Positions 1 to 29,829 of a DNA stretch of 64,000 bases are shown here, piece after piece. Source of the stretch: a virus (lineage: Duplodnaviria > Caudoviricetes); IMG/VR virus record IMGVR_UViG_3300021400_000095, one strand, 5' to 3'. Below the pieces are notes generated by a model, which did not search any database, was not told the DNA's origin, and saw only the letters and a program-made list of their open reading frames with translations. Position numbers and translations under genes: made by a program. The stretch's first letter is position 1, and each line of letters opens with the position of its first letter.

Positions 1-270
1 AATAAGGTATATTGTGCAAGAACATATAATTCATTTGTTCTCATATTAGATTATCTATATAAGAAATATGGGTATATTGATGAAATATGGTTTGACCATG
101 ATTTAGGTAATAATTCAAAGAGTGGATATGATTGTGCAAAATATCTTATAGATTTCTGTGATAGATATAATCTGACAATTCCACAATATCATATACATTC
201 AGCAAATCCTGTGGGTAGACAGAATATAGATTCTTATATTAAATCATATCAAAAAAGCCTTACACTTTGA
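1..270 (+). CDS. cyclic-phosphate processing receiver (cREC-like) domain protein, 5'-truncated by window
   Basis: Frame 1 is open from base 1 to TGA at 268-270, with motifs WFDHDLG...SGYDCAK...HSANPVG. Confidence 0.75.
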   Translation, partial: NKVYCARTYNSFVLILDYLYKKYGYIDEIWFDHDLGNNSKSGYDCAKYLIDFCDRYNLTIPQYHIHSANPVGRQNIDSYIKSYQKSLTL

Positions 271-327
271 TTAGTTTGGTATGGTTTTGGCATATAGTTA
301 TATTGTTGATTTTAAAATAAAAGAATT

Positions 328-606
328 ATGTTGCAGAATAAAACTTTTAGTTTTAAGAAAGTAATCAATCCTATAGAAAAGGAGATTGATTGGGAAAAGG
401 ATTTTGGTTGTCATGGTTTAAACCTTTCCACAATGCAGTTTGAAAGAGTGTCAATGGTTGGTGCTCCAAAGTCAATAATACATATAAATCTGTATGCTGA
501 TATTGCTGATTATTCAGAGGATGTTGCTGAAATGGCCAAGGCAGATAGTGCTACATTTTTGCTTTATAAAGATTATTATGTTGTTGGTTATGTTGTTGAA
601 TCTTAA
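328..606 (+). CDS. hypothetical protein
   Basis: ORF track; upstream TGG motif and A-rich leader. Confidence 0.75.
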   Translation: MLQNKTFSFKKVINPIEKEIDWEKDFGCHGLNLSTMQFERVSMVGAPKSIIHINLYADIADYSEDVAEMAKADSATFLLYKDYYVVGYVVES

Positions 607-668
607 TTAAGGTTTTGGCATAATTCTTGGATATATTGTAAGTGTTAAACAAATTAAATTAATATAAT

Positions 669-887
669 ATGAAAACCATTGAAGGGGGCATTGAGAAGGT
701 ATTTGTTATGATTAATTCTACAAATTATAACAATGATGGCAAGTTTTGTGTTCATATTGGCAATCTTGCTGAAATGGCTGAATTGGGAATGAATACCTCA
801 GAAGATGTCAATGAATTGAATAATCTTGATGTTGATGGAGTTGCTTTGACAGATTATAAAGGTTGTTATGTAATTAGAATTGCATAA
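669..887 (+). CDS. hypothetical protein
   Basis: ORF track; TGGCAT motif at 616. Confidence 0.75.
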   Translation: MKTIEGGIEKVFVMINSTNYNNDGKFCVHIGNLAEMAELGMNTSEDVNELNNLDVDGVALTDYKGCYVIRIA

Positions 888-892
888 AAAAA

Positions 893-975
893 GGATAGAG
901 GTGTTGGCCACACCCACCCGGAACCATTTGAGGGTAGAAGATAATGGGCCCGCAACAAGGTAGGTTGTTGCAATA
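893..975 (+). ncRNA. candidate small structured RNA
   Basis: GC-rich intergenic island with hairpins GGTGT/ACACC and GCAACAA/TTGTTGC and two rare CpGs. Confidence 0.35.
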
Positions 976-1065
976 GAAATGTATTATTTTTTAATATATT
1001 TCTATTTTTTTTTATTTTGGCATTATTATTGTATATAATATAATTGTAATTAAATATATTATTAT

Positions 1066-1344
1066 ATGAATAAGATTGATATTCTGAACAAGATTAAGGA
1101 TTTTCTCAGTAGCAATATTGGGGATATGTATTATTCTTTTGCATATAAGTCTTTTGTTTTTCATTATGATAGTTCAAAATATGATTTAATGTCAATTTAT
1201 ATCAATGAGGATAATGTGGTTGAGATTGAATGTGTTGGCTATTCTGCATTTAAGTTGAATTATCTTAAAGCAAAGGATATGTCTTATAAGACCTTGAATC
1301 TTATTTATAATAATTTGGTTGCTGATTTTAAAACTTATAATTAG
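1066..1344 (+). CDS. hypothetical protein
   Basis: ORF track; upstream motif. Confidence 0.75.
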   Translation: MNKIDILNKIKDFLSSNIGDMYYSFAYKSFVFHYDSSKYDLMSIYINEDNVVEIECVGYSAFKLNYLKAKDMSYKTLNLIYNNLVADFKTYN

Positions 1345-1347
1345 AAT

Positions 1348-1590
1348 ATGAATATTGAAGAATTGAAATCCCTTGCATTAAGGATGCTATTTGAGGAACA
1401 TCTTTGGAAGGTTGGTGAAAAGACAAGTTTTGAATTTTCCCTTAAAGAATATCAGATTGGCAAGGTGGAGAATGGCTTTACATTAAGCACCTATAATAAG
1501 ATAGATAAAACTTGGAACAAGCCTAAAGAGTTTGCAAGTCTTGGAAGATTGTTTAGTTATTTATTTAATTGCAATTTCATATCATATTAA
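1348..1590 (+). CDS. hypothetical protein
   Basis: ORF track; operonic. Confidence 0.7.
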   Translation: MNIEELKSLALRMLFEEHLWKVGEKTSFEFSLKEYQIGKVENGFTLSTYNKIDKTWNKPKEFASLGRLFSYLFNCNFISY

Positions 1591-1647
1591 GTTATGGTAT
1601 GGATTTTGCATTTAGTGTAGGTGAGTATTAACATTTAAGATTTTGGT

Positions 1648-2058
1648 ATGATGAATGTTTTTAATTATGCAGCAGTCTGTGAGAAGAATTGGGAATTGAA
1701 TCTTGGTGATATGACAGATTGGAAACCCAAATATACATTTTATAGTGATTTTTCCATTGCAGAATATTGTGAGATTTACAAGAGGGATGCAAAGGCAGTA
1801 GAAGATACATATAATAGAGTTATTGAATCTTGGGGGGATTGCATTGATGCAATGACTGAGGTTTCAATGGTATTGAATCATAAGATTTGGGCATTTTATA
1901 ATAGAGTAGATAGTGGTTATCTTGGTTGCAGTGATACAATAGCAGATTATTTTGAAGGCATTTATTATAAACTTTGGGAGAAATGTACTGCTTTCATTAA
2001 AAAGAAATTTGCTGATGATAAGGATGCAATGTCTTATTATTATTCAGTAATTGATTAA
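1648..2058 (+). CDS. hypothetical protein
   Basis: ORF track; upstream motif. Confidence 0.8.
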   Translation: MMNVFNYAAVCEKNWELNLGDMTDWKPKYTFYSDFSIAEYCEIYKRDAKAVEDTYNRVIESWGDCIDAMTEVSMVLNHKIWAFYNRVDSGYLGCSDTIADYFEGIYYKLWEKCTAFIKKKFADDKDAMSYYYSVID

Positions 2059-2123
2059 GTTCAATTACTTTTGGCATTATTCTTGATTATACAATAAACA
2101 GATAACTATCAAAAAATAGAATT

Positions 2124-2399
2124 ATGAACAAGGTTTACATTGTTACTTGGGAGAATGTGCATAATTATAACACTGAGGCATATAGTGGTCTTAACATCTA
2201 TGGTGTTTTTGCCACAAAGGAGGATGCAGCAAAAGCAAAAGATAATCTGATTAATCAGATGATTGAAGATGCAAAAAAGGATGGTATTAAATATAAGATG
2301 GTATCCAATAATGATATTTATGCTGATGTAGAGATTGATGAAGAAGAATATCATTTCTATGTCACTGATTATGAAGTTGGAAAAGTTTATGTAGATTAA
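2124..2399 (+). CDS. hypothetical protein
   Basis: ORF track; upstream motif. Confidence 0.8.
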   Translation: MNKVYIVTWENVHNYNTEAYSGLNIYGVFATKEDAAKAKDNLINQMIEDAKKDGIKYKMVSNNDIYADVEIDEEEYHFYVTDYEVGKVYVD

Positions 2400-2450
2400 A
2401 CTTTTGGTATATTTATTGCATATTATAATAATGTATTAAATATAATAATT

Positions 2451-2705
2451 ATGGCAAAGGTAAGAGGAATTACAAAGCAGATGCTGACTGATGTAAAGGC
2501 TGATATTAGAAAATATGAAGTCCTTTGCAAGCAGGGAGAACAACATAATGTTGCTGAAAAGTTGATGCAGGAGAATCCAAATATTCTTTATTGTAATTAT
2601 TGGAATGATAAGGATTTGGAATGGGGTGGTCAATTGACTTATTCTATTACAAGGGAAGATTGTGAATATCATAAAAAAATGATAAGCCAAAATGATGATG
2701 AATAA
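2451..2705 (+). CDS. hypothetical protein
   Basis: ORF track; upstream motif. Confidence 0.75.
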   Translation: MAKVRGITKQMLTDVKADIRKYEVLCKQGEQHNVAEKLMQENPNILYCNYWNDKDLEWGGQLTYSITREDCEYHKKMISQNDDE

Positions 2706-2760
2706 TCTTTGGCATTATTCTTGTTAATACATTATATAGATAACTTTAATATTATTTGAA

Positions 2761-3270
2761 ATGAATAAGAATATTAAGACCCTTGAACTTGGTACTATTA
2801 ACATTGAGAGTGGTAAGGTTTATGCTACTGACCCTTGTTATCCCACAGATATTTGGTGTCAGAAACTTGTAAATGTCAAAGCAGGAAAATATATTTGTAG
2901 GGCAGTTATCAGTGATGAGGGAGATTGGGGAAAGAGGATTTCTGAAATTTCTATCAGTCACACTGATAATCCAAAGAATCTTGGGAAATATATTCTTTCA
3001 GATAATATTGGTGTTGATAGTGGTCAGTGTGGTTTCTTTGAAAAGGAATATTATGAGGAATTCCACAATGGGCATTTCATTGTTGAAAATGATAAAGATA
3101 AAGAATGGTATGACAAGGTATGTAATATAACCTTGAATGGGGAGTTTTGTGGTTGTGTGGATGATAAGGGTGTTGTAAGTGAAAGTGGTTATGGTGATGG
3201 TTGTTATACCCTTTATGCAGGATATAATTCAAAAGATGAAATTGTTGCATTGAGAGTTAGATTTATTTAA
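2761..3270 (+). CDS. DUF4241-like protein
   Basis: Motifs TDPCY, IGVDSGQCGFF, SGYGDGCY. Confidence 0.65.
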   Translation: MNKNIKTLELGTINIESGKVYATDPCYPTDIWCQKLVNVKAGKYICRAVISDEGDWGKRISEISISHTDNPKNLGKYILSDNIGVDSGQCGFFEKEYYEEFHNGHFIVENDKDKEWYDKVCNITLNGEFCGCVDDKGVVSESGYGDGCYTLYAGYNSKDEIVALRVRFI

Positions 3271-3379
3271 CTTATTGTTATAATTTTTTCTATAAAATAA
3301 GGGTATTGCAAAATATCCTTGTTTTTTATATTATTGTGGTATGGTTATTGCATATAGGTATAATGTAATAAAATGTAAT

Positions 3380-3556
3380 ATGAGAGAGATAACAAAAGAG
3401 CAATGGTTAAGGATGCTTGCATTAAATTGTGATAAAGGCAAACATAGAATAAGAATGAACAGATATGGTGTATCTTGGTGTATTATTTGTGGAAGATTAA
3501 GTTCTACAAATAATGTTGATGATTTGAAAGAGAATGAAAGTCTTTCAATCAAATAG
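3380..3556 (+). CDS. small Cys/His-containing hypothetical protein
   Basis: In-frame ATG at 3380 after the promoter motif; C..H and CxxC residues. Confidence 0.6.
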   Translation: MREITKEQWLRMLALNCDKGKHRIRMNRYGVSWCIICGRLSSTNNVDDLKENESLSIK

Positions 3557-3612
3557 ATTTTTTGGCATTATAATTGATAGTAATATAGGTGTAATTATAA
3601 AATTAATAGAAT

Positions 3613-3858
3613 ATGGACAAGCAAGAAATCAGAAATTTCCTCAACAAGAATTATAAGAGTTGGAAAAATGCATTTGTCATTTATGAATTAACTGACAATA
3701 AAATCAATATTATTGATTATGGTATGCATAAGGCAAGTATGTCAATGATTGCCAAGAAACTTATTAAAACCTATAATTTTGAAATGGTTGTTTTTACTAT
3801 TGGCAGTCCTACTGGAAATGTTTGGTTTTTTACCAAGCATAGTCTTGGTTTGGTATAG
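3613..3858 (+). CDS. hypothetical protein
   Basis: ORF track; upstream motif. Confidence 0.75.
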   Translation: MDKQEIRNFLNKNYKSWKNAFVIYELTDNKINIIDYGMHKASMSMIAKKLIKTYNFEMVVFTIGSPTGNVWFFTKHSLGLV

Positions 3859-3892
3859 TTTTTGTTATATAATCTAATAAAAATATAGTATT

Positions 3893-4303
3893 ATGATTAC
3901 CAAATTTGTTTTTTCTTGTCTTGTGCTTCTTCTTGTTCTTTTCTTGATTTATGCAGTGATTGGTACAATTATAGAAAACAAGGAAATTAAAAAACTTTAT
4001 TCTTGTCATCTTTGGGATATGTTCATTGATAATTCCAAGAAGTTCAAGTTTAAGTATGTATATTATTATAAATCCAACAAACAATATATCTATCATTGGG
4101 AATATGGAAATTATGATATTGTTGTTTGGGTTGATGATACTGAAACTCCAATTCCAACTTGTTCAATTCATACTATGAAATCAGATTGTGTACTTTCAAA
4201 TTTCAATAAAGCAAAGAGTAATGAACTTGCTATGATTCTGCTAAATAGTATTGGTTGGAATAATAATAATGAATATTTCTGTAAATATTATCATTTGGCA
4301 TAA
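3893..4303 (+). CDS. hypothetical membrane-anchored protein
   Basis: N-terminal hydrophobic helix. Confidence 0.75.
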   Translation: MITKFVFSCLVLLLVLFLIYAVIGTIIENKEIKKLYSCHLWDMFIDNSKKFKFKYVYYYKSNKQYIYHWEYGNYDIVVWVDDTETPIPTCSIHTMKSDCVLSNFNKAKSNELAMILLNSIGWNNNNEYFCKYYHLA

Positions 4304-4346
4304 TTATTGATTGTATTGTAAGTGTAATAAATAAAAAAGAAGAATT

Positions 4347-4763
4347 ATGAATAATGCTATTAGTTATGATGCTCTCTGTGTTGAATTCCATAATTTGTGG
4401 GAGAAAGCACATAGTACACTGAACAATATGCTTAATAACAGAGGTGTTGAAACAATCAATGTTATGGCATATATTGATGCTGATATGCTTGACATTTGTC
4501 CATCATTTTCACAGACTGACAAAAATGGTTATGGTGTCAATGTAACTCTCAAACTCATTCATAAGGACAAGAATGGTGATTGGGTTGTTGATGTGGTGGA
4601 TGAAGATTATGATGATTGGGACACACTCAATTTTGACCAATGGAATTTTGATGCAGGAGCATTGATTGATGTTATTGGTGTTGTTGAGGAAATTTTTGAG
4701 ATTGCTGATGACCAATATAATGGAAAGGTGCTTGGTGTTGGTGAAAATTTTGAAGAAGAATAG
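4347..4763 (+). CDS. acidic hypothetical protein
   Basis: ORF track; D/E-rich. Confidence 0.8.
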   Translation: MNNAISYDALCVEFHNLWEKAHSTLNNMLNNRGVETINVMAYIDADMLDICPSFSQTDKNGYGVNVTLKLIHKDKNGDWVVDVVDEDYDDWDTLNFDQWNFDAGALIDVIGVVEEIFEIADDQYNGKVLGVGENFEEE

Positions 4764-4809
4764 AGATTGGCAAGATTATTGCATATATGTATAGTGTATA
4801 ATAAAGGAT

Positions 4810-4959
4810 ATGGATAATCTTAAGAAATGTTGTCTTGCTTGTAAGAACAATCAATTCTGTAAAAATACAGAGAGGAAAGGTCAAGTAACAACCTTTGTTT
4901 GTGAAAATTTTAAGTGGCATAGTTCATATAAATCTTTCAATTCAAAGAAGAAAGAATAA
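4810..4959 (+). CDS. small Cys-rich hypothetical protein (49 aa)
   Basis: Read manually: MDNLKKCCLACKNNQFC...KKKE*; own TGGCAAG-N4-TTGC motif. Confidence 0.6.
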   Translation: MDNLKKCCLACKNNQFCKNTERKGQVTTFVCENFKWHSSYKSFNSKKKE

Positions 4960-5009
4960 AGTTTGGCACAAATATTGTTCTATATTGTAAGTGTAAAAAA
5001 TAAACAAGT

Positions 5010-5309
5010 ATGCAAGTCAAATTCAAATACAATCAGTTTATTGTCAAAAAGGCAAGGGAAGTTGGTAGTTTGATTAACAAAGTAAGTTATGGTGTTTTCA
5101 AAGTAACTCCCTATGTTAAATATGATGTTGAGGGAACACCTATGGAATTTGATATTACATACAAAGTACATCTTATTCCAGTGGGGAAAAATGCAGAGAA
5201 ATTTTGTGAAGATGATTATTATACATCTGATTTGTGGGATGTCCCCAAAGAAATGATTTTTGATGATGAAAATCTTGCACAAAAATTAGTTGATAAAATT
5301 TCCATATAA
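5010..5309 (+). CDS. hypothetical protein
   Basis: ORF track; upstream TGGCAC motif. Confidence 0.75.
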   Translation: MQVKFKYNQFIVKKAREVGSLINKVSYGVFKVTPYVKYDVEGTPMEFDITYKVHLIPVGKNAEKFCEDDYYTSDLWDVPKEMIFDDENLAQKLVDKISI

Positions 5310-5338
5310 ATAAACTTTGGCATAAAATGTGCAATATA

Positions 5339-5686
5339 ATTAGAGGTCAGCCTTAAAACTTTGGCATGGATATTGATTGTTAAAATGTGTAAATAAATTA
5401 GTTGAAACATTTTTATGAGAATTAAAGATAAGACTTAAAGTTTGGCACAATTTTAGATAGTATTTAGGTGTTGATGTTAAATTTAATTTGAAACCTATTA
5501 GTATGATTAGAGATAAGCCTTAAAATTAGATTTATTATTATTGAACTTTGATATTAGTGTAAATTTAATTTGGGATTTTTTAAGTATGAATAGGATTAGA
5601 GATAAGACTTAAAGTTTGGCACAATTTTAGATAGTATTTAGTAAAACAAGTAAAACCCAATTAAAATGATTAGAGGTCAGCCTTAA
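5339..5686 (+). repeat. five ~18-nt direct repeats ATTARAGRTMAGMCTTAA interleaved with sigma54-like motifs
   Basis: Copies at 5339, 5421, 5506, 5595 and 5669; 42-nt exact duplication 5426-5467 = 5600-5641. Confidence 0.85.
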
Positions 5687-5759
5687 TAAAGTTTTAAGAT
5701 AGATATTAGTTAAAATAACACAATCCTAAAATCCCAATAAATTTAGCAACATAATAGGA

Positions 5760-6310
5760 TAAACAATAACCAAAGGTTACAAAAGTTGCAAAGTTTCCCA
5801 AAGGGAAACACAAAAACCAATAAGGGCAAAAATTGAAATAGTGTGCTTTTCCAATGAAGCATATGCAGAGGTAAAGATAAAGGTGGGTCGCAACCACAAT
5901 GGCATAACTTGAAGGAGTGGAGGAATAGCACAACTATTTTAATGAAAATCAAAAAACCTTATAATGCTAAAAGGGTGGTCTCCTTAAGCAGAATGGTTAA
6001 TGACTTGGAAACATTAAATTATATTATTTATTTTATTTAATTTGATGGCTTAAACCCTCATTTTGAGGTCAAGTTGGCAACTGACTTGTAGGTGGATAGT
6101 TGTAATTGACATTTTGGCAAAGGTAAGTAACCATAATCCATGTGGACAGATGTATGCAGATACACAATAAATCCTATGGGTAACATCATAGCAGGAATTA
6201 GGGTCTATATGTTATTGATTATTCTTGTAATTCCAAGTAAATAATCTTTCATAGTGTGGTTTGATTTGAAATGGAGAATCAGTAAAGCAAATAATCTTTG
6301 TCAATTTGTT
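5760..6310 (+). ncRNA. candidate large structured ncRNA (~550 nt; ROOL/GOLLD-like size class, unassigned)
   Basis: No credible ORF; many hairpins and long-range helices (5908-5917/5980-5988, 5931-5939/6094-6102, 6104-6111/6299-6306). Confidence 0.55.
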
Positions 6311-6340
6311 AATTTTTATTTTAGAAATTTATTAACAATG

Positions 6341-6356
6341 GTACTCATTTGAGTAC
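6341..6356. repeat. palindrome GTACTC-N4-GAGTAC (one of six copies; others at 14419, 17006, 19579, 22522, 22766)
   Basis: Recurs intergenically; loop ATTT here, TTTT in the other five. Confidence 0.85.
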
Positions 6357-6375
6357 CTTATTAAATAAGTAAAAG

Positions 6376-6711
6376 ATGGTTACAAGTTTTTTTGATGCAG
6401 TGTATCAAATCACAGAAGCTGTATATGGCACAATTTCTTATCTTACTTGTGTATTGAACAATATAGAAGGTAAGACTATTGACCTATCATATAATAGAGA
6501 TAATGTATATGGATATATCTTGATTGATGATAAGATTGTTGAAAAACAACTTCATAAGGTTTGTGTTGATGAAAATAATAATGTTAAAATTAAATTCATT
6601 GATAGTGATGAATATTATTATCTTAACACTTCCATTGATATTGAATTTATACAGACAACATTTAATATTGCACAATCTCTAAAAGATTATCCTATTGATG
6701 ATGTAATATAA
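6376..6711 (+). CDS. hypothetical protein
   Basis: ORF track. Confidence 0.75.
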   Translation: MVTSFFDAVYQITEAVYGTISYLTCVLNNIEGKTIDLSYNRDNVYGYILIDDKIVEKQLHKVCVDENNNVKIKFIDSDEYYYLNTSIDIEFIQTTFNIAQSLKDYPIDDVI

Positions 6712-6766
6712 AAAGTTTGGCATCATTTCTGCATATCATATAATTGAACATTAAAAAAAAAGAATT

Positions 6767-7066
6767 ATGAATTACATTGAGGAAAAGAAGTATCTGATTA
6801 ACAAGGCCATTAATTTTATGAATGGTAGGGATAGTGTTTATCTTGAAGATATAATTGGCAATACTGACTATATTACACTTGACTATTTTGGCAACAAGAT
6901 TGAGTGTGAGGCAGTGGGTCTTGAAATGTTTGATAATTCACCAAATGAGGTTTTTCTGAGAACTTATAGTGAAGAATACCCTGATGGTGCTGAAACTGAC
7001 AACCTTAAGTATTTCTCCAATGATGAAATAAAGAAAATTCTTGACCTTTTTGGTATTGAATATTAG
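6767..7066 (+). CDS. hypothetical protein
   Basis: ORF track; upstream motif. Confidence 0.8.
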   Translation: MNYIEEKKYLINKAINFMNGRDSVYLEDIIGNTDYITLDYFGNKIECEAVGLEMFDNSPNEVFLRTYSEEYPDGAETDNLKYFSNDEIKKILDLFGIEY

Positions 7067-7114
7067 TTTGGCATTATTTCTGCATATTGTATAATTGAAC
7101 ATTTAATAAAGAAT

Positions 7115-7438
7115 ATGGAAACAATTTATTTGAAAGAGAGAATTCCTGCTGAAAATGGTAGATATAAAACAACTCATTATGAGATTGTAGAACATAATGG
7201 TAAGAAATTCCTTATCTATGTTGAGGGCAGTAATGGAGATTGTCTTGGTTTCAATAATAAGTGTTGCCTTAGTGTTATGAATGAAAATGGCAGTTGGGAT
7301 AAGGTTGCTGATAACCACCAACTTGGTTTTTCATCCAATAATGATAATATGTATTATGGCACTAAAGTTGAAGTAAAGAAGAAGTATGTTGATATGAATG
7401 TCAATGAGTTTAAGGACTATATTTCTAAAGTATATTAA
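7115..7438 (+). CDS. hypothetical protein
   Basis: ORF track; upstream motif. Confidence 0.8.
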   Translation: METIYLKERIPAENGRYKTTHYEIVEHNGKKFLIYVEGSNGDCLGFNNKCCLSVMNENGSWDKVADNHQLGFSSNNDNMYYGTKVEVKKKYVDMNVNEFKDYISKVY

Positions 7439-7440
7439 TT

Positions 7441-7812
7441 ATGGAGAAAATGGCAAACTACAAGAATGTTCTTGTTAATGTAAACAAGACTATTGATGAA
7501 CTTTATGTTTCCCTTAGGGAATTCATTAAGGAACATGGTGGTTTTATCAACACAAGTGCTGATAAGTATCCTAAGTATCCCTGCAATATCAAGTCCATTG
7601 AGTATGTCAGTGGTGGTGAGGTTGCAGAGTGGAATGTTCTTGCAGTCAAGGTTGTAGGTGATAGAATTATGTATTGTGCTGACTATGATGCTTGTGAGGA
7701 AGTATCTGATGAAGATTTGGATGATTATGAGTGGTTTGACCTTTGTGGTGGTGGTCACTATTATGTTCAGACCTTGCTGAATATTTGTGAACTTATTGAA
7801 TTATATGTATAG
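7441..7812 (+). CDS. acidic hypothetical protein
   Basis: ORF track. Confidence 0.8.
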   Translation: MEKMANYKNVLVNVNKTIDELYVSLREFIKEHGGFINTSADKYPKYPCNIKSIEYVSGGEVAEWNVLAVKVVGDRIMYCADYDACEEVSDEDLDDYEWFDLCGGGHYYVQTLLNICELIELYV

Positions 7813-7868
7813 TTTGGTATAGTTTATGCATATATTAAAATGTTATTTTATAAAAAACAAGAAACATT

Positions 7869-8240
7869 ATGATTATGGTTACTGAATATTTTGCTAACAA
7901 GATTCTGAATGATGCTCAGAAAAGGATTAAGGGTTACATTGTTAATCTTGTAAAGAAACTTTACTTGGACAAGAATGAGTTTGCACCAAATTTTGATGAT
8001 GGTGAAAACTATTGTCTTGAATGTGAAGGTATAAGTTTCAGTATTGAAGTAGATAACTCATATCTTGATGTTTATGAAGTAACCTCTGAGGAAAGGCAAA
8101 TCAAAGAGATTGTTGTTGATGGCAGTGACAATCTATGGTTTGTAATGGAAGATGATGATGAATGTAATTGGGATGATGTAGATGTGCTGAATCTTGCAGG
8201 TGTTGCAAATATTTTGCAGAATCTTGCTTTTAAAAAGTAG
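7869..8240 (+). CDS. acidic hypothetical protein
   Basis: ORF track; upstream motif. Confidence 0.8.
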   Translation: MIMVTEYFANKILNDAQKRIKGYIVNLVKKLYLDKNEFAPNFDDGENYCLECEGISFSIEVDNSYLDVYEVTSEERQIKEIVVDGSDNLWFVMEDDDECNWDDVDVLNLAGVANILQNLAFKK

Positions 8241-8293
8241 AATGGTATAATTTTTGAATATAGTATAGAAGAACAATTTTAATTAATTTAATT

Positions 8294-8596
8294 ATGAAAG
8301 TTACACAACTTATTAACAACAATGGTAATCCTGCATCCAATCAGTTTGTTATTTATGACAATGATAATAACATTTATTTTCAGTCTTATGAAACTCTGAT
8401 TGCAAAGTATGATGTTAAGAGCAAGAAGTTGTTTGTTACCAAATCTTGGGATTATAGTAATACTACAAGAAAGCATTTCTATATTTTCCTAAATGATTTT
8501 ACCAAGTATGGTTATATCTATAATAAGGATAGTATGCTTAAGGCAATTAAGAATGGTGAAGTTGAAGTAGTTGATAGTAAATTTTTTAATTTTTAA
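8294..8596 (+). CDS. phage hypothetical protein (FQSY...WDYSxTTxKH)
   Basis: ORF track; motif resembles a recurrent phage family (recalled, not searched). Confidence 0.8.
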   Translation: MKVTQLINNNGNPASNQFVIYDNDNNIYFQSYETLIAKYDVKSKKLFVTKSWDYSNTTRKHFYIFLNDFTKYGYIYNKDSMLKAIKNGEVEVVDSKFFNF

Positions 8597-8600
8597 AAAA

Positions 8601-8813
8601 ATGAATCAGAAGTTTATGAAACAGATGTTTCTTACTTTGTTTAATGATTTCAGTAAGAAACATATTTTTGCCCACAATTTTTACAATCTTAGTCAAGAGG
8701 AAAAGTATGAGATTGCAAAAGACACTTTCAATGATATTGCAAAGCATTTGAAAGCAAACATTACAGATACCATGAAAGATAATATTATTCTAAATTTTAT
8801 GGAGTTGCTTTAA
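8601..8813 (+). CDS. hypothetical protein
   Basis: ATG at 8601, in frame with the track ORF. Confidence 0.7.
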   Translation: MNQKFMKQMFLTLFNDFSKKHIFAHNFYNLSQEEKYEIAKDTFNDIAKHLKANITDTMKDNIILNFMELL

Positions 8814-8861
8814 GATTTTGGCATTAAAATTGCTAATGTTATTGTAACAAATATTATCATT

Positions 8862-9059
8862 ATGACTATTGAAGAAATTATTGAACTTGCTGAAAAAGCA
8901 AATGAAGCAAATGAGTTGAACAATTCTGATGTCAGATATTGGATTCAGAATCTACAAGGTGAAGATAGATTCTTTATTTGTTACAATATCTTGGATATGG
9001 ATGATATTGAAGAAGTAAGTAAGGAAATTTTTATCAAGAAAATTAGCAAAAATCTTTAA
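8862..9059 (+). CDS. hypothetical protein
   Basis: ORF track; upstream motif. Confidence 0.7.
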   Translation: MTIEEIIELAEKANEANELNNSDVRYWIQNLQGEDRFFICYNILDMDDIEEVSKEIFIKKISKNL

Positions 9060-9061
9060 TT

Positions 9062-9295
9062 ATGGGCAATATCTATTTTATTCTTTCATCTGAAAGGGAT
9101 AACTTTAATAAGAAATATAATGAGTTTATCCATAGACTTATTTGGGATAGCAATATTCTTGATGGTTTTGAAATCAATGATATTAGAAATTTTGAAGAGC
9201 AGTTAAATAATCCAGTTTTTAGAACTGAGGTTGTTCAGAAACTTGGTGATATGATTTATCAAAAGTTGTTCAATTCTGAAAATGTGGCACAATAA
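9062..9295 (+). CDS. hypothetical protein
   Basis: ORF track. Confidence 0.7.
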   Translation: MGNIYFILSSERDNFNKKYNEFIHRLIWDSNILDGFEINDIRNFEEQLNNPVFRTEVVQKLGDMIYQKLFNSENVAQ

Positions 9296-9330
9296 TTGAT
9301 TAATATCATATTGAATAATTAAAATAAAAT

Positions 9331-9642
9331 ATGAAAGAATTTAATAATTGGTTTACTATCTCCTTTAGTTATCTTGGTAAGGACTTTGAGCATACCATTA
9401 CCCTGCACCAACTTGATATTGATGAAGATACTTGGTATTATTACTTTGATATCAATGTTAAAGGTGATTATTATAGGGTGGAAGTCTTTGGAACTTATGA
9501 TGATGATGGCAATGTGAGAACAAGTGGTGAATGTATGGTGGATGGTAAAGAAACCCTTGCTTGCTTTGGTATTAATATCACTGATGATGATGGTGATGTC
9601 ATTGCTTATATTGATGATATTGATATTATTGATACTGACTAA
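9331..9642 (+). CDS. highly acidic hypothetical protein
   Basis: ORF track; D-rich. Confidence 0.8.
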   Translation: MKEFNNWFTISFSYLGKDFEHTITLHQLDIDEDTWYYYFDINVKGDYYRVEVFGTYDDDGNVRTSGECMVDGKETLACFGINITDDDGDVIAYIDDIDIIDTD

Positions 9643-9645
9643 AGT

Positions 9646-9966
9646 ATGAAAAAATATAGTGCTATTAAAGGTATTATTGATTTGCTCACCAAATATGGTG
9701 GGCAAAATGAAAATACTAAATATTTCACAATTACAGATAATCTATCTGTTGATAGCAGACCTAATGATGGAAACATCCTTAAGATAGTTGCAGATGTTTT
9801 CACTGAAAATAGGTTTAATCAATTTGACTTTGATGGTAAAAATAATCAATCTGAATATTTTATTATTTGGGTTGAGTTTGAAAGTGGATATGAAAGACTT
9901 TGTAATCTTGACTTAGTTGATATTGAAAAAATTTGGAATTATATGTTTAAGAAAATTAAACCTTGA
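9646..9966 (+). CDS. hypothetical protein
   Basis: ORF track. Confidence 0.75.
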   Translation: MKKYSAIKGIIDLLTKYGGQNENTKYFTITDNLSVDSRPNDGNILKIVADVFTENRFNQFDFDGKNNQSEYFIIWVEFESGYERLCNLDLVDIEKIWNYMFKKIKP

Positions 9967-10030
9967 TTTTTTCAAAACTAATTTGTATATTTGTAAAACT
10001 ATTAAATAATATTATTAAAAAAATTAAATT

Positions 10031-10195
10031 ATGAAGAAGATTGTATCTATTCTTATGATTGCAATGCTTGTTGTTCTTTCTTCTTGTGGCAATAGGACTA
10101 CTCAGTCTGAGGTTGCTACTGAGGAAGTTGAGGAAGTTGCTGATAGCCTTGCAGTTGTAGATTCTACTGCTACTGAAACAGTTGTTGTAGAGTAA
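10031..10195 (+). CDS. small lipoprotein (54 aa)
   Basis: MKKIVSILMIAMLVVLSS-CGNR... signal peptide II/lipobox and acidic tail; TATATTTG promoter at ~9986; terminator at ~10221-10252. Confidence 0.8.
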   Translation: MKKIVSILMIAMLVVLSSCGNRTTQSEVATEEVEEVADSLAVVDSTATETVVVE

Positions 10196-10285
10196 AAAAA
10201 AAACAAAAAAGTAAAAAAAGAAAGCCATATCAATTCATTTTGGTATGGCTTTTGTTATATATTAGAATGAACAATTAAAACTAAA

Positions 10286-10564
10286 GTGAATATGGATATT
10301 ACTAATCTTCTTTTACTGATTAACAATCAGCATTTCTACATTGACATCATTGATGATTGTGAGCCAAATAATGGTGGTTTCTATTGTAGAATCTATGATG
10401 ATAAGAGAATTATCATTTATAAGGATGTGGTTACTAATGTTGAAGTAATTGACTTTGGTGACTATCTTGATGATATGTGTATCCATATTGGGGATTGTAA
10501 ATTCAATAGTGCTGAGGTATCTAATTATCTATATAATTATATCCTTAATAACATTTTGGCATAA
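10286..10564 (+). CDS. hypothetical protein
   Basis: ORF track. Confidence 0.7.
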   Translation: MNMDITNLLLLINNQHFYIDIIDDCEPNNGGFYCRIYDDKRIIIYKDVVTNVEVIDFGDYLDDMCIHIGDCKFNSAEVSNYLYNYILNNILA

Positions 10565-10596
10565 CTATTGTATCTACTATTAATGTATTAAATTTT

Positions 10597-10806
10597 ATGA
10601 ATATGAATAGAAGTGAACTTTCTTTTAAGTATTTTTTCAATGCAGGTCTTGATAGGAGAACTCTTGAATGTGATGTTGAGGGAACTGATGTATATCAGAA
10701 TGACCATTATATTGGCTCTGTAAAATGGAAGTTGCCAAATGAACTTGAAGAAATGACTGATGATGAACTTGAAGAAATTTTCTTTGAGAATGATATCTTG
10801 GTGTAA
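10597..10806 (+). CDS. acidic hypothetical protein
   Basis: ORF track; upstream motif. Confidence 0.75.
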   Translation: MNMNRSELSFKYFFNAGLDRRTLECDVEGTDVYQNDHYIGSVKWKLPNELEEMTDDELEEIFFENDILV

Positions 10807-10838
10807 TTTTTGATATATAATAGATAAATTAAATAGCA

Positions 10839-11036
10839 ATGACAAAATTAGCAATCTTGAAACAAAAAATAATTAGAGCATACCACAATCCAAAAAATTG
10901 GGAATATTCAAAATTCAAAGGTTACCCAGAAGGAACTTATTTTGGGTATGATTCTCTAAAAGATTGTATACAAGATACAATAAAGCAATATATTGCTTTT
11001 TATGGAAAAGGCTTAAAAAAATGGAGGTATAATTAA
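10839..11036 (+). CDS. hypothetical protein
   Basis: ORF track. Confidence 0.65.
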   Translation: MTKLAILKQKIIRAYHNPKNWEYSKFKGYPEGTYFGYDSLKDCIQDTIKQYIAFYGKGLKKWRYN

Positions 11037-11098
11037 AGGAATGTATAAATAGTTTGGCATCATTATTGATAGTATTCTAACTATAAAATAATATAATT

Positions 11099-11515
11099 AT
11101 GACAAGAGAAGAACTTTTTAATGCAGTGGGTTGCCTTACTTATTCAAGTTATCATAACTATGATAATATTATCTATGGCTATGACCTGCAATTCTATAAT
11201 AAGAAAAAGAAGAAGTATATTTATAACTATTCTATTATATATAGGAATGAAAATACTTTTCCTATGTATGGAGTAGTTACTAATATGTTCTATGTTGATA
11301 GCAAAATCTGTATTATTAATAATATGGATGAACTTAAAAAGTTTGGTCTTGCTTGCATGAATGAGGACAATTCTATTTTCACCAAGAAATTTGATATTCA
11401 GAAAATCAATGTTACTGATGATAAAACTCTGAATCAAATGGCAAGAAATGATAAGTCCATTTTGAATATGGTTTATAAAGAAGATTATACTTATATCTTA
11501 AGAATTAAAGAATAA
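11099..11515 (+). CDS. hypothetical protein
   Basis: ORF track; upstream motif. Confidence 0.75.
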   Translation: MTREELFNAVGCLTYSSYHNYDNIIYGYDLQFYNKKKKKYIYNYSIIYRNENTFPMYGVVTNMFYVDSKICIINNMDELKKFGLACMNEDNSIFTKKFDIQKINVTDDKTLNQMARNDKSILNMVYKEDYTYILRIKE

Positions 11516-11563
11516 TATTTTTGGCATAATCTTTGCAAAATATCATATTAAATAAAAAAGAAT

Positions 11564-11899
11564 ATGAAAAGAAATCATCCTTTGTTTATTGGTGAGGTTG
11601 TATTTGACCTTAATAAGAATTACTTTGGTGTAATTACTGAACTTACTGATAATAAGGCAGTCCTTGACATGAATGGTTGGTGTGAGGAAGAAAATAGGAA
11701 AATGTTTGATTGTGAAATCACAGAAGATGACATTGTTTGGGAAACTGATGATTTAGATTCACTTTATCAAGTTGCTTGGGGAATTAAAGATAACAGACTT
11801 GGTGAGATGGTCTGTTATGAACATAATAATACCAGTGGTAATTACCCTTATTATTCACCTTATCTTGAAGAAAATCTTTATGGTTTTGAAATTGAATAA
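11564..11899 (+). CDS. acidic hypothetical protein
   Basis: ORF track; upstream motif. Confidence 0.8.
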   Translation: MKRNHPLFIGEVVFDLNKNYFGVITELTDNKAVLDMNGWCEEENRKMFDCEITEDDIVWETDDLDSLYQVAWGIKDNRLGEMVCYEHNNTSGNYPYYSPYLEENLYGFEIE

Positions 11900-11957
11900 T
11901 ATTTTTGGCATATTATTTGTCATATAAGTATTGAACATTTTTTAAATCTTGATTTAT

Positions 11958-12392
11958 ATGAAAATTGGAAAGATGCTTTATACTTTAAGGGAAATGGTTG
12001 ATTCCTTTGTTGCTGAACATAATCTTGCTTGGGATAGATATAGGGAAAAGGTTGAAAAAGAAAAAGGTTATTCAAAGGGTGTAAATCTTAGTATGCAATC
12101 TTATCTTGGGTCTGACCTTTTGATTGATTTTGCATATCTTGCTCTTGAATATGATAAGGGAATTCCTTTTGAAAGGGAATATTGGATTAGAAGTCAAGGT
12201 GTGCAATGTATTAAGAATCCAAAGGATGAATCTGAGAAACAGATGCATAGAGTGTTTGGTGATATTGTTGCAAAAATCAAGGTTGTTTTTGATGGCAATG
12301 AATTTGCTGACCCTATGTGGATTCAAGATGATGATTGTCTGATTGAAAACAAATTTATCAAGGAAAATAAACTCTATCAGAGATATTTTTAA
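11958..12392 (+). CDS. hypothetical protein
   Basis: ORF track; first ATG at 11958. Confidence 0.8.
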   Translation: MKIGKMLYTLREMVDSFVAEHNLAWDRYREKVEKEKGYSKGVNLSMQSYLGSDLLIDFAYLALEYDKGIPFEREYWIRSQGVQCIKNPKDESEKQMHRVFGDIVAKIKVVFDGNEFADPMWIQDDDCLIENKFIKENKLYQRYF

Positions 12393-12440
12393 ACTTTGGC
12401 ATGAATCTTGTCATATGTTTAAATGTTAAAAATTTGATAT

Positions 12441-12749
12441 ATGAAATATAATCCTACACTTACCCACAATGGTCACAATTTCAATGAATTCATTGATGAT
12501 TATGATTGGACATATCTTGTGGAAACACTTAATGATTATTTTATTAAAAATAATTATGTGAAAGAGGATTTTTTTGGTGAATTTGCAGAGGCAACTTTGG
12601 ATGTCATTGATGATAATGTTTACTTTCTTGTTTATGATAAGGCAAAAACAGATTTTGGCTACAAGTATGGTTTTAATTCCTATGCAAGAAAACTAATTTC
12701 TTATAAACTTTTGGAATATTTTAAGGCAAATTTTGCTCCTTTGGCATAA
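12441..12749 (+). CDS. hypothetical protein
   Basis: ORF track; upstream motif. Confidence 0.75.
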   Translation: MKYNPTLTHNGHNFNEFIDDYDWTYLVETLNDYFIKNNYVKEDFFGEFAEATLDVIDDNVYFLVYDKAKTDFGYKYGFNSYARKLISYKLLEYFKANFAPLA

Positions 12750-12810
12750 AAATTGAATTAGTATATAAAGAATAAATTAAGTTAAACAATAAAAAAAAAA
12801 ATTAAGAATT

Positions 12811-13275
12811 ATGAAAGGTAATGTTGAGAATCTGATTAGGACCACTGCTATGAATCCCATCAATGGTAAACTGAATCTTGTTCAGTATAAGAATGAGAAG
12901 AAAAAGGCTCTTGTTCATAAGGGAGTCTGTGAAAGTGTTGTGGCATTTGCTGATGCTAATCCTATGATGCCTTTCTATGCAATTCTTGCAGTAGGTGTTG
13001 GCAGTGGGTCTTTCAAAATGGATGAATATAAAAAGGGTTATAAGTTCTTCAATGCTGATAAGGCATCCACTTGTCTTGCAATGGCAAATGCTTATAATAA
13101 GCATATGAATATCAAGGGTAAGCCAAGTGATGTTGTTTGGAGACTTGTCAATAAGTATTATAATAAGGTATCCCATAATGTGGATGATTTCAAGGCAGCA
13201 CTTTCCAAGGCAAATGTTGCTGATGGAGATAGGGGCCATTTTTCTGAACTTTGTGCAAATATTGGGATTGTTTAA
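12811..13275 (+). CDS. hypothetical protein
   Basis: ORF track; upstream motif. Confidence 0.8.
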   Translation: MKGNVENLIRTTAMNPINGKLNLVQYKNEKKKALVHKGVCESVVAFADANPMMPFYAILAVGVGSGSFKMDEYKKGYKFFNADKASTCLAMANAYNKHMNIKGKPSDVVWRLVNKYYNKVSHNVDDFKAALSKANVADGDRGHFSELCANIGIV

Positions 13276-13334
13276 TCCCTTTTGGCACATTTCTTGCTCA
13301 TATCTATAATGTATAACTTATAAATTTATTTATT

Positions 13335-13607
13335 ATGAATAAGAATCAGTATATTTCTGAAATTAAGAAACTTGTTAAAAACAATGATAATAAGACCTAT
13401 TTCTTTTCCAATGGTCTTAATATTGTAACTTGGTATGATGGTATGCAGATTCCTACCAATATCCATAAGGTGTTTGTAAAGGGCAATGTCCTTTATATCA
13501 ATGTCACTGATGCATATCATACTGAAACTGACAATGTTGAAAAAATGTCAGATTGGGATGTGGATGATGTTGCCACAATTTATTCCCTTGTTTCCAATAA
13601 CAAGTAA
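13335..13607 (+). CDS. hypothetical protein
   Basis: ORF track; upstream motif. Confidence 0.75.
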   Translation: MNKNQYISEIKKLVKNNDNKTYFFSNGLNIVTWYDGMQIPTNIHKVFVKGNVLYINVTDAYHTETDNVEKMSDWDVDDVATIYSLVSNNK

Positions 13608-13666
13608 ACTTTGGCATGATTTCTGTTATATATTATATTGAATATTAATAAAAAAAATAATTGAAT

Positions 13667-14170
13667 ATGAGTACTTTTGTTGCTACCAATTTCATGAGGA
13701 CTTCTGACCTTAAGGCACTTGCATTTGTTATTAATGATTGGGAGGATTGGAGGTGTGCTCTCTCTGAGGAAGCTGTCTATAACCTTGACCATAATGATGA
13801 TTTGATGTATTTCATTGAAAAGTATGGTGCTACCAAAGCAGTTGAATATTATAATAAGAGTAGATTTTGGCTTGATGGCAATAATTTCAAGGAGCCTCAT
13901 CTTCTTAGTTTTGATAGGATGGTGGATATCATTAATGATGTCTATGATGTGGAGCATTTCAAGGAACTCATTGAAAATGGTTATGAGGAACTATATGACA
14001 AGTGGTTTTACATGGATAAGGTTAAAAATGCTATCAATCCAAAGAAAGCCTATTGTGTGACCACCATGTTTAAGTCCTCTGTTGATAGGGATGAAATCAA
14101 GAAGAAGGTTGAGAGTATTCTGAAAGAGAGTGGTGTCAGTAATTGGACCTTTGTTGTGGAGGAAGCATAA
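13667..14170 (+). CDS. hypothetical protein
   Basis: ORF track; first ATG at 13667. Confidence 0.8.
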   Translation: MSTFVATNFMRTSDLKALAFVINDWEDWRCALSEEAVYNLDHNDDLMYFIEKYGATKAVEYYNKSRFWLDGNNFKEPHLLSFDRMVDIINDVYDVEHFKELIENGYEELYDKWFYMDKVKNAINPKKAYCVTTMFKSSVDRDEIKKKVESILKESGVSNWTFVVEEA

Positions 14171-14171
14171 T

Positions 14172-14408
14172 ATGAAGGCAAAGGAGTTGTTGGATAGGCT
14201 TGGAACTCTGTACTATGATACAGAGTTGTCCATAGCAAAAATTCTGATGAAACACAAGAATATTACTGATACTGATGGTACTGAAATTTCTTTGGGTACA
14301 GATAATAATGGTGTAAGATGTGTTTTCTATGGTTATGACCCAATCAATGAACTTGATATTAATGATATGATTGGTGTTCTTGAATATCTTGAAAAAATTG
14401 ATGATTAA
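14172..14408 (+). CDS. hypothetical protein
   Basis: ATG immediately after the previous stop. Confidence 0.75.
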   Translation: MKAKELLDRLGTLYYDTELSIAKILMKHKNITDTDGTEISLGTDNNGVRCVFYGYDPINELDINDMIGVLEYLEKIDD

Positions 14409-14487
14409 TAGCATAAAGGTACTCTTTTGAGTACCTTTTGGCATACTTCTTGAATATATTAGTATTGAACATTTAATAAAAAGAATT

Positions 14488-15003
14488 ATGATTAAGCACA
14501 AAAAAAATTACTTCCTTGTTAATGCCATTGATATGGGGGAGAACATAAAGGAATATCTTGAATCTGCAAAATTCAATTATGTGATTGTTGAGGGTGGGCA
14601 AGTCCTTATGTGGGGAAATAAATTCCCAGTTATCTTTGGTTCAATGGAAGATGTCAATGCTGAATTGAACTATCTTAAGGATAGTAAAAATCAAATTATT
14701 GTAATGTCTGAATTTGATTTTATTATTAACCATTGTCTTTCTGCCATTGAGGATATCATTATTAACCAAATTAAAATTAAGGGTGAAAATGATGGAGTGT
14801 GTCATATCTTCTTTTTCAATGGTCTTAATAATGTCATTAATATTAATGGAATGACAGATATTCTTAATGGGTCTGTTGGTGCTGATGGTCTTTTATCTTT
14901 ACTCATTTCTGATGAAGATGATAACAAACAAGACTTTATTTCTTTGAGTGATATTAAGGATAGTGATGTAATTTTTAATATTCTTGTGCAGGTTTTGGCA
15001 TAG
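14488..15003 (+). CDS. hypothetical protein
   Basis: ORF track; palindrome plus promoter motif upstream. Confidence 0.8.
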   Translation: MIKHKKNYFLVNAIDMGENIKEYLESAKFNYVIVEGGQVLMWGNKFPVIFGSMEDVNAELNYLKDSKNQIIVMSEFDFIINHCLSAIEDIIINQIKIKGENDGVCHIFFFNGLNNVININGMTDILNGSVGADGLLSLLISDEDDNKQDFISLSDIKDSDVIFNILVQVLA

Positions 15004-15045
15004 TTATTGTTCATATCTATATTGTATAATTAAAATAAAAGTATT

Positions 15046-15312
15046 ATGGAAATTTATGTTCTTACAATTTCTGAAGTTTTTGACTTTGAAGATTTTTCTC
15101 ATAAGCCAAAGGCTTTTTATAAATTTGAAGATGCAGTTGCTGAAATGAATTCTATTAGCAACAATTTTGAAAAAGATACTGATATAGAAAGTGAAATTGA
15201 TGGTGATTCTTGGGTGATTGATAAGGGCAGTAGGTTTTATGATGCTTATATTGATGGCAGATATAATGAATACCATTTTACAATTAAAATTAATCAAGTG
15301 GAGGTAAAATAA
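15046..15312 (+). CDS. hypothetical protein
   Basis: ORF track; loosely resembles 2124, 15556 and 19866. Confidence 0.8.
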   Translation: MEIYVLTISEVFDFEDFSHKPKAFYKFEDAVAEMNSISNNFEKDTDIESEIDGDSWVIDKGSRFYDAYIDGRYNEYHFTIKINQVEVK

Positions 15313-15314
15313 TT

Positions 15315-15485
15315 ATGGCAAGACAGAATTCTATTAATGTGCTTGATGACCTTAATGAATATGCAACAAGATATGGTCTTGATGCTCTTGGTTATGCAAT
15401 TAGGGAAATGGCAAGAAACAATGAGATTCATTTCACACAAAAACAAATGTGTGACCTTTGGGAATATGGTGGGAATGTGGAATAA
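15315..15485 (+). CDS. hypothetical protein (56 aa)
   Basis: Read manually: MARQNSINVLDDLNEY...GGNVE*; operonic. Confidence 0.65.
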   Translation: MARQNSINVLDDLNEYATRYGLDALGYAIREMARNNEIHFTQKQMCDLWEYGGNVE

Positions 15486-15555
15486 TTTTCCAGATTTTCA
15501 TTTTTGGTATGATTCTTGCTCTTATTACAATAGATAATTAAAATAAAAAAGTATT

Positions 15556-15825
15556 ATGAAAAGGTTTTATATTCTTACTTTTGTTGACCTTGTTAAAATG
15601 GGTTATAATGTTTCTGATGTTTTCATGTTTGATAGTATTGAACTTGCTATTAAGAAAATGAAAGAAATGTATCTTCAATATTGTGAACAAGAAGATATTG
15701 ATGACCCTATGGCCACTGATTCTTATGACCATGAATTTAGTGAAAGTGGAGAATTTAATAATGGTTTTGCCTATATTAATGGAAAATATTATTGGGATAT
15801 TTTCAATAAAGACCTTGAATATTAA
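15556..15825 (+). CDS. hypothetical protein
   Basis: ORF track; upstream motif. Confidence 0.8.
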   Translation: MKRFYILTFVDLVKMGYNVSDVFMFDSIELAIKKMKEMYLQYCEQEDIDDPMATDSYDHEFSESGEFNNGFAYINGKYYWDIFNKDLEY

Positions 15826-15880
15826 TTTTCTGGCATAGTTATTGTTCATATCTATATTGTATAAATTAAAAAAAAGCATT

Positions 15881-16315
15881 ATGATTAATCTTAGAAGTTA
15901 TATGGAAGATGGTGCTAATTGGCAGGCACAGGCAGTCCTTGCTTATATGAAAGCAAATTATGAATGGGCAGTTGACCCTTCTTGGGATGATGAAAGGAAA
16001 GCCTATGATGCTGAAATCTTCCTTTATAGATATGAAAATTGTAGGGAAAATGGCTATATTTTTTCCCTCAGATTTGATGATGCACAACTGAATTTTGCAG
16101 TGTTTGAGGCTGCTAATTCTGATGATATTTTTGTCCTTATTAATAATGAGGTTTTCTTTGATACCCCAAGTTGGGAGGTTATGAGAAAAGTATATAAATC
16201 AAGATATGATTGTGATATTTCTTTCAAAGTTGGGCATATTGTTGAATGTGGTAACTATATTGTTAATGAAATGAGAGATTTCATTAAGAATATTATTTCA
16301 AAAGATTATTGCTAA
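15881..16315 (+). CDS. hypothetical protein
   Basis: ATG at 15881, in frame with the track ORF. Confidence 0.8.
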   Translation: MINLRSYMEDGANWQAQAVLAYMKANYEWAVDPSWDDERKAYDAEIFLYRYENCRENGYIFSLRFDDAQLNFAVFEAANSDDIFVLINNEVFFDTPSWEVMRKVYKSRYDCDISFKVGHIVECGNYIVNEMRDFIKNIISKDYC

Positions 16316-16377
16316 TATTCTTCTTTGGCATACTTTCTGCATATATCTATATTGTTAACAATTAAAAAAAAAGAATT

Positions 16378-16968: not shown

Positions 16969-17135
16969 TTATTAATAATTATCTTTGGTAAAAAATATCT
17001 AATAAGTACTCTTTTGAGTACTTTTTGGTACAATTATTGATTAAAATTAAAAAGGGTTGAGTAAAACCAATAATGATTCTCTGAGTAGACTAGCTTTGGC
17101 AACCCTTTTATTTAACAATTAAAAAATTAACAATT

Positions 17136-17615: not shown

Positions 17616-17673
17616 TTCTTTGGCATGATACTTGCCTATTTAATAATATATAAACAATTAAATAAAAAGAATT

Positions 17674-18054: not shown

Positions 18055-18106
18055 TCTTTGGCATGATTTATGCAATATATCTAAATAGAAAATAAAAAAA
18101 GAATAT

Positions 18107-18406: not shown

Positions 18407-18412
18407 ATTATT

Positions 18413-19063: not shown

Positions 19064-19130
19064 TATTATATTAATGTCTTGATATATTAAATTATTTTTT
19101 ATATATTTGTTATATAAATAAAAATTTAAT

Positions 19131-20700: not shown

Positions 20701-20709
20701 CTAAAAAAC

Positions 20710-26976: not shown

Positions 26977-27044
26977 GATTTAGAAAAATAATTAACAATA
27001 ATAAATAAACCATGGGAAATTAATCTCATGGTTTATTATTTTAT

Positions 27045-27224: not shown

Positions 27225-27242
27225 ATTTTAATTATTAAATAA

Positions 27243-29826: not shown

Positions 29827-29829
29827 TTA

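Follow-up and report, generated by a model that had tools for sequence, protein, structure and literature searches.

A covarying, pseudoknotted phage RNA with a near-invariant, detachable core and a leader of putative minigenes

The stretch of DNA analyzed here, 64,000 nucleotides (nt) of the Caudoviricetes record IMGVR_UViG_3300021400_000095 from IMG/VR and called the window throughout, is AT-rich phage DNA with 29.1% GC and 18 CpG dinucleotides in 64 kb. Dense small orphan genes fill its positions 1-19000, and among them the + strand carries five very short open reading frames (ORFs), called minigenes here, followed by a compact structured RNA and a lineage-specific 3′ extension (Table 1); the genes flanking the RNA are orphans of about 100 amino acids (aa). 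A sequence-only reading had proposed a ~550-nt non-coding RNA (ncRNA) at this locus. The unit conserved among homologues is instead about 285 nt long, from ~5729 to ~6012, and its pseudoknots, its detachable core and the upstream minigene array had been missed. The region had also been described as ORF-free, which holds for + strand ORFs of at least 50 aa and not for the minus strand, where two TTG-started ORFs (69-75 aa) overlap 5706-5952. Its elevated GC content is real but modest (32.8%, against 29.1% in the window and 23.9% in the upstream spacer). That a structured RNA gene lies here is, in our judgement, almost certain.

Table 1. Features of the minigene and RNA locus in window coordinates
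Feature	Position	Strand	Remarks
Promoter-like motif, sigma54-type −24/−12 spacing	5316..5331	+	function putative, from sequence
Weaker copies of the promoter-like sigma54-type motif	5360, 5441, 5615	+	
Minigene 1	5327..5356	+	probably degenerate; ATG within promoter motif
Minigene 2	5415..5438	+	7 codons; end I-K-D-K-T-stop
Minigene 3	5503..5523	+	M-I-R-D-K-P-stop
Minigene 4	5586..5612	+	8 codons; end I-R-D-K-T-stop
Minigene 5	5666..5686	+	M-I-R-G-Q-P-stop; stops ~43 nt before the RNA
5′ pseudoknot	5729..5789	+	P1 crosses P2; small hairpin P3 in loop
P1	5731-5734/5757-5760	+	2/4 pairs compensatory, 100% paired
P2	5746-5750/5785-5789	+	44/45 cells paired; hand-set register
Hairpin P4	5793..5809	+	44/45 cells paired; several pair types per column; hand-set register
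P5a, long-range helix	5815-5819/5994-5998	+	3 compensatory pairs
P5b, long-range helix	5821-5825/5957-5961	+	1 compensatory pair
Detachable domain, variable-length helix P6 bearing the core	5832..5945	+	absent in L195
Ultraconserved core, 64 nt	~5854-5917	+	mean identity 94%, scaffold 63-68%
P7, helix with bulged G, in core	5868-5872/5907-5910	+	
Hairpin P8	5883-5897	+	retained CpG in loop
Hairpin P9	5965-5990	+	6/7 pairs compensatory; includes 5971-5974/5982-5985
3′ pseudoknot	5977-5980 (P9 loop)/6002-6005	+	36/36 cells paired; 2-3 pair types per column; hand-set
3′ extension	6040..6315	+	hairpins and long helix 6104-6124/6294-6314, then U-rich tract

The RNA has been found in about 11 phage lineages and by several routes. 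A 16-nt pattern around a CpG of the RNA recovered eight true copies in metagenome contigs, most of its 126 matches being due to chance and several seemingly representing opposite-strand ends of group II introns, and a second pattern gave one copy in a complete 393-kb phage (L127, genome G001). Three further loci (L129, L132, L135) and a close strain of the window, L190, were reached via neighbouring proteins with no RNA pattern used, and the copy of a 363-kb phage, L195, was found by searching for the tandem minigene motif alone. Similarity among the copies covers window positions 5729-6012 and ends in an AU-rich tract, and the RNA is single-copy in both G001 and a second complete genome, G455. 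Terminator-like hairpins with U tails can be read from the sequence after the RNA in L195, L135, L132 and L022. Elsewhere the searches were negative: BLAST of phage and plasmid collections returned chance matches only, of the GTDB pattern scans one had no matches and another 36 chance matches, and models of the core and the 5′ domain gave nothing credible in 151 sampled genomes from the class of Mucilaginibacter or in another sample of 151 small genomes. The flanks fetched for five related phage loci (L137, L138, L140, L192, L220) contain no copy, which does not imply absence from those genomes.

The fold was evaluated as a 36-pair model on a MAFFT alignment that is structure-blind, that is, not fitted to the fold. 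In this alignment 97.8% of cells are paired and 14 of the 36 pairs show compensatory changes, whereas slid controls reach 24-44% and none of 500 shuffles was as good, a count that is not a probability because the sequences are related. RNAalifold, run on the plain MAFFT alignment, returned 32 pairs, 13 of them with double changes. One-sided changes yield G-U pairs on the + strand, the strand to which the RNA is assigned from its sequence, and for the 591-nt stretch the folding z is -2.1 on that strand and -1.0 on the other. Covariation among homologues, whose absence the sequence-only reading had named as counting against an RNA, is thus present. Two pseudoknots covary, one at each end of the RNA. 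For P2, P4 and the 3′ pseudoknot the alignment registers were set by hand, and two to five pair types occur per column. A third pseudoknot (5863-5866/5902-5905), inside the core, is tentative, with a single one-sided change. The hairpin proposed earlier at 5793-5809 is P4, and most of the long-range helices proposed with it are other than the conserved ones; two of them clash with the covarying fold. The strands of 5908-5917/5980-5988 are complementary but are used by the covarying P7 and P9, and 5931-5939/6094-6102, in which 7 of 9 positions match, is in competition with P6.

The most conserved part of the RNA is the core carried by P6. The use of a core pattern to find several of the copies inflates its identity in part; the copies found via proteins carry the core as well. 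Between the window and the nearly identical L190, two double changes fall in the 3-bp helix closing the core. Where relatives have a CpG in a stem, a wobble or compensated pair stands in the window, whereas the loop CpG at 5889, rightly pointed out earlier as retained and one of just 18 in the window, is kept, which suggests that those two bases are needed themselves. The core is also separable from its scaffold: L195 has an 11-nt loop in place of P6 and the core and keeps the rest of the RNA, and its 161-nt remainder folds unaided into P2, P3, P4, P5a, P5b and P9. No core was found elsewhere in the L195 genome. Another copy, L051, has ~130 nt inserted 3′ of the core. An unannotated structured RNA in phage tRNA clusters, at L077 (~165-330) and L088 (~6400-6560), has the P8 hairpin in common with the core, nothing else shared having been detected.

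The 3′ part of the originally proposed RNA, 6040-6315, falls outside the conserved family by sequence comparison, being matched in close strains only (L190, L142, L143). On its own it folds at z = -1.0. In L190, two G-U pairs of the helix 6114-6124/6294-6304 are replaced by Watson-Crick pairs and the enclosed 67-nt block (6178-6245) is missing, and the segment therefore probably folds. The hairpin at 6056-6068 and the short inverted pairs 6174/6187 and 6217/6240 noticed earlier are all present, and the proposed helix 6104-6111/6299-6306 pairs perfectly over 8 nt, but energy modelling and the differences between strains prefer 6114-6124/6294-6304 together with 6104-6111/6307-6314. Other phages have unrelated blocks at this position, ending in terminator-like hairpins, and the segment is possibly the terminator region of the transcript. 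An operator-like 18-bp palindrome lies just beyond it at 6340-6357 and recurs at 14419, 17006, 19579, 22522 and 22766; the same palindrome is found 3′ of the RNA in L127 and L195.

Upstream of the RNA, five 18-nt repeats at 5339-5686, with a direct-repeat spacing of 74-89 nt, are the ends of the minigenes, which have 6-13 codons and end in I-R-D-K-P-stop, I-R-G-Q-P-stop or D-K-T. Eight loci have 20 motif copies between them; for 19 of these an in-frame ATG lies within nine codons with no stop between, against a background of 3.3%, and the distances from ATG to motif (6, 9, 12, 15 and 24 nt) differ by steps of three. Synonymous variation is seen in the codons for Ile, Gly, Pro and Thr and in the stop codon; the C-terminus of the peptide is conserved, and the N-terminus and the spacers are variable. 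The L190 counterpart of minigene 1 has a nearer ATG and encodes M-I-R-G-Q-P. Translation of the minigenes is accordingly predicted with good confidence. In the whole of G001 (393 kb) the coding motif occurs twice, both times ahead of the RNA, and twenty unrelated motif matches in IMG/VR have neither the ATG nor the RNA. The minigene reading frames and their linkage to the RNA are established at the level of such comparisons. Arrays comprise 2-5 minigenes, ~80-90 nt apart in an AU-rich leader, and their size differs, five versus three, between near-identical strains.

The wider setting points to a large phage. The nearest matches of the window helicase are Bacteroides phage proteins, and small proteins near the RNA have relatives (44-71%) on phage contigs of up to 360-390 kb; we infer a jumbo phage of Bacteroidota, and the giant phages bearing the RNA probably infect gut bacteria. 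The sigma54-like −24/−12 motif of the locus precedes most of the small genes in 1-19000, about 35 of them, and is promoter-like. Similar motifs are seen in L007, L029, L097 and L108, and by eye L022, L127 and L132 have Bacteroidota sigma-A-type promoters in the corresponding region. At 20381-20700, a tRNA-Leu (UAA anticodon) has its D-loop apparently split by a group I intron (Rfam E 0.001, below gathering) and contains 7 of the 18 window CpGs; in L220 (~18497-19145) the tRNA-Leu intron seems by eye to lie in the anticodon loop instead. The following 20701-20910 is ORF-free and GC-richer, has a CpG at 20903 and may hold another small RNA, and a tRNA-like sequence with a truncated D arm (19722-19801) adjoins tRNA-Met (29 bits). 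Four orphan proteins at 25591-40390 carry PARCEL-like repeats (TIGR02167). The small-gene region of L192, a related jumbo phage, encodes ribosomal protein bS21 and a SAM-lyase (9280-9474 and 13405-14166).

An early transcript that loads and pauses ribosomes at its minigenes, thereby stabilising the RNA and bringing the core to the translation machinery, is the account of this locus that we favour, though we give it somewhat less than even credence. The transcript would stand alone, with an unstructured AU-rich minigene leader and a compact ~285-nt RNA with two or three pseudoknots. Each minigene would load one ribosome, for which the 80-90 nt spacing gives room, and the ribosome would pause at the conserved R-x-x-P-stop end. 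Such a pause might protect or mature the 5′ end of the RNA and set the folded RNA beside ribosomes, release factors or tRNA, where the ultraconserved core could bind a fixed host partner in the translation machinery during host takeover. Classical attenuation is unlikely because the last stop lies ~40-50 nt or more ahead of the fold, too far for it; this distance, together with the minigene spacing, favours a transcript that both loads and pauses ribosomes. R-x-x-P (RAGP, RGSP, RAPP) and P-stop endings are ribosome-stalling motifs (PMC10987492), and minigenes can trap peptidyl-tRNA (PMC8012679). In G001 and G455 no Pth gene (PF01195 family) was found. Extending this account, we consider it conceivable, more doubtfully, that the locus is a so far undescribed RNA machine in which the minigene array captures host ribosomes and makes them pause on the same transcript, while the pseudoknotted RNA with its plug-in core acts on ribosome, release factor or tRNA and so redirects translation or blunts a translation-targeting defence.

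Several points weigh against the loading and pausing transcript. The minigene copies are not independent and represent ~7 lineages. Their penultimate codon is AAG or CAG in 20 of 20, whereas usage in the genome is 32% and 25%, with AAA and CAA preferred, so that the constraint may lie partly at the nucleotide level. In known R-x-x-P arrest peptides the residues between R and P are small or Pro, where the minigenes have D-K or G-Q, and a long upstream context is needed, unlike minigenes of 6-13 codons; moreover, three minigene copies end in Thr, not Pro. Neither part of the locus is obligatory: the array is dispensable, since in L029 and L097 the complete RNA follows immediately on an ordinary gene and minigenes are lacking, and the core is dispensable, since L195 lacks it. 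Finally, no feature of the sequence names the partner of the core.

The foremost alternative makes the RNA a scaffold or a sponge for proteins in its own right (ROOL-, GOLLD- or raiA-like, or an anti-defence decoy) and takes the co-transcribed minigene peptides as a product dosed by copy number. We regard this as unlikely, though serious. The RNA without minigenes in two phages and the strain difference in array size agree with it, as does the conservation of the C-terminus, and not of the N-terminus or spacers, in peptides of 6-8 residues. However, minigenes without the RNA were never found, either in G001 or among the twenty IMG/VR matches, and we know of no role for such short unsecreted peptides, which counts against their being the product. 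Rather improbable is a second proposal, in which the core is a catalytic or tRNA-end-binding module on a stabilising scaffold, either ribozyme-like or with two UGG triplets pairing tRNA NCCA ends. It would explain the identity of the core relative to the scaffold (Table 1), the bulged-G helix and invariant A-rich linker, the loop CpG kept in a CpG-purged genome and the clean presence or absence of the core. Against this, none of the ribozyme, T-box, RNase P or intron models of Rfam matches, a 9-nt stretch resembling group I J8/7 comes without the upstream P7 strand, and one of the UGG triplets is paired in P8 in the model. Rfam gave no backing for likenesses to RNase P, T-box, HDV and group I motifs. 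A Y-RNA-like partnership with the phage Ro60-like protein encoded at 55817-57430 is improbable. This protein has DUF7788/DUF2828, and DUF7788 also occurs in G001 and G455, both complete RNA-bearing phages, but the gene is distant and may be family-wide, with co-occurrence checked in just 3 genomes; the RNA lacks a long stem joining its 5′ and 3′ termini, its ends forming separate pseudoknots, and Rfam has no YrlA match to it. A DNA-level element, such as an origin with iterons or an array of activator sites, would account for direct repeats spaced by 74-89 nt, but the covarying pseudoknots, the G-U wobble changes on one strand, the in-frame ATGs, the synonymous codon variation and the terminators after the element make it most improbable. 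Equally remote is a diverged ROOL, GOLLD or drum member, which the phage location and a drum (RF02958) match to the window core of 15.2 bits (E 5.8, gathering 43 bits) might suggest, since ROOL and GOLLD match no copy scanned, the RNA is half the length of ROOL, and the drum match is missing in other copies (L007, L128, L051, L108, L050, L042).

The sequence-only reading had left the RNA either to a class such as ROOL or GOLLD or to a new one, and the homologues and covariation support a new structured phage ncRNA. Scanning the window and homologues with the Rfam 15 covariance models gave no match to ROOL (RF03087), GOLLD or OLE at gathering score or E<10. No other family reached gathering score at this locus either, and the matches at E<10 were noise. 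Neither Rfam nor ARAGORN matched the RNA to HEARO, RNase P, transfer-messenger RNA (tmRNA) or group I/II introns, and the same Rfam scan did pick up the group I intron elsewhere in the window. ROOL is ~581 nt long with six multistem junctions (PMC5737381), a length which argues against membership of the ~285-nt unit. For drum, the reciprocal comparison was negative too: the core model does not match five true drum RNAs (L185-L189). An RNA linked to a reverse transcriptase (retron, DRT) was rejected, with no RVT_1 match in G001 or G455. No description of the RNA or the peptides was found in the literature, where an earlier unnamed listing in the supplements of PMC5737381 or PMC10690425 is possible.

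The minigene array directs attention to a specific pathway, ribosome loading and termination, and natural variants that have or lack the core, and that have or lack minigenes, provide built-in experimental handles. If the proposed role is correct, an RNA route would be added to the ways in which jumbo phages manage host translation. No precedent was found for a conserved-peptide minigene array joined to a multi-pseudoknot RNA with a detachable core, and the novelty lies in this architecture, not in a demonstrated mechanism. In an R-x-x-P ending and a Pro before the stop, the minigenes recall SecM, ApdA/ApdP, the RQH family, NSP-stop and NAP-stop (PMC10987492), and as very short ORFs they recall the bar minigenes of phage lambda (PMC8012679). 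They differ from both in combining so few codons with a tandem arrangement and their own mid-motif residues; compared with the SecM/RQH motif R-A/G-G/P/S-P, the spacing of R and P alone agrees in R-D-K-P and R-G-Q-P. What follows them, moreover, is a non-coding RNA in place of a regulated protein gene, and they overlap no switchable stem. As for the RNA itself, the dicistrovirus intergenic internal ribosome entry site (IRES) and tmRNA are compact multi-pseudoknot RNAs that engage ribosomes, an analogy of working only, as the phage RNA has no tRNA-like acceptor, tag frame or ORF after the 3′ pseudoknot and neither Rfam nor ARAGORN matches it to them. Like ROOL and GOLLD (PMC5737381, PMC12286853), it is phage-borne, pseudoknotted, multi-junction and of unknown function, but it is ~285 nt long (187 nt without the core) against ~581 nt and often >800 nt, lies among small early genes and not in a tRNA island, and has a near-invariant core and minigenes ahead. 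It resembles the raiA motif (~205 nt), drum, skipping-rope, FuFi-1 and DUF3800-I RNAs in being medium-sized, highly conserved and stand-alone; those of the drum group end in Rho-independent terminators (PMC5737381). From this group it differs in matching no model, in its helix order and in that no DUF3800 gene was found in G001, where a remote relative below the Pfam cut-off is possible. Bacteria and phages have few RNAs of this size that combine a near-invariant core with several covarying pseudoknots, most of them without known function, and to judge from these comparisons the present one is akin in kind to the orphan ornate RNAs, while belonging to none of their classes.
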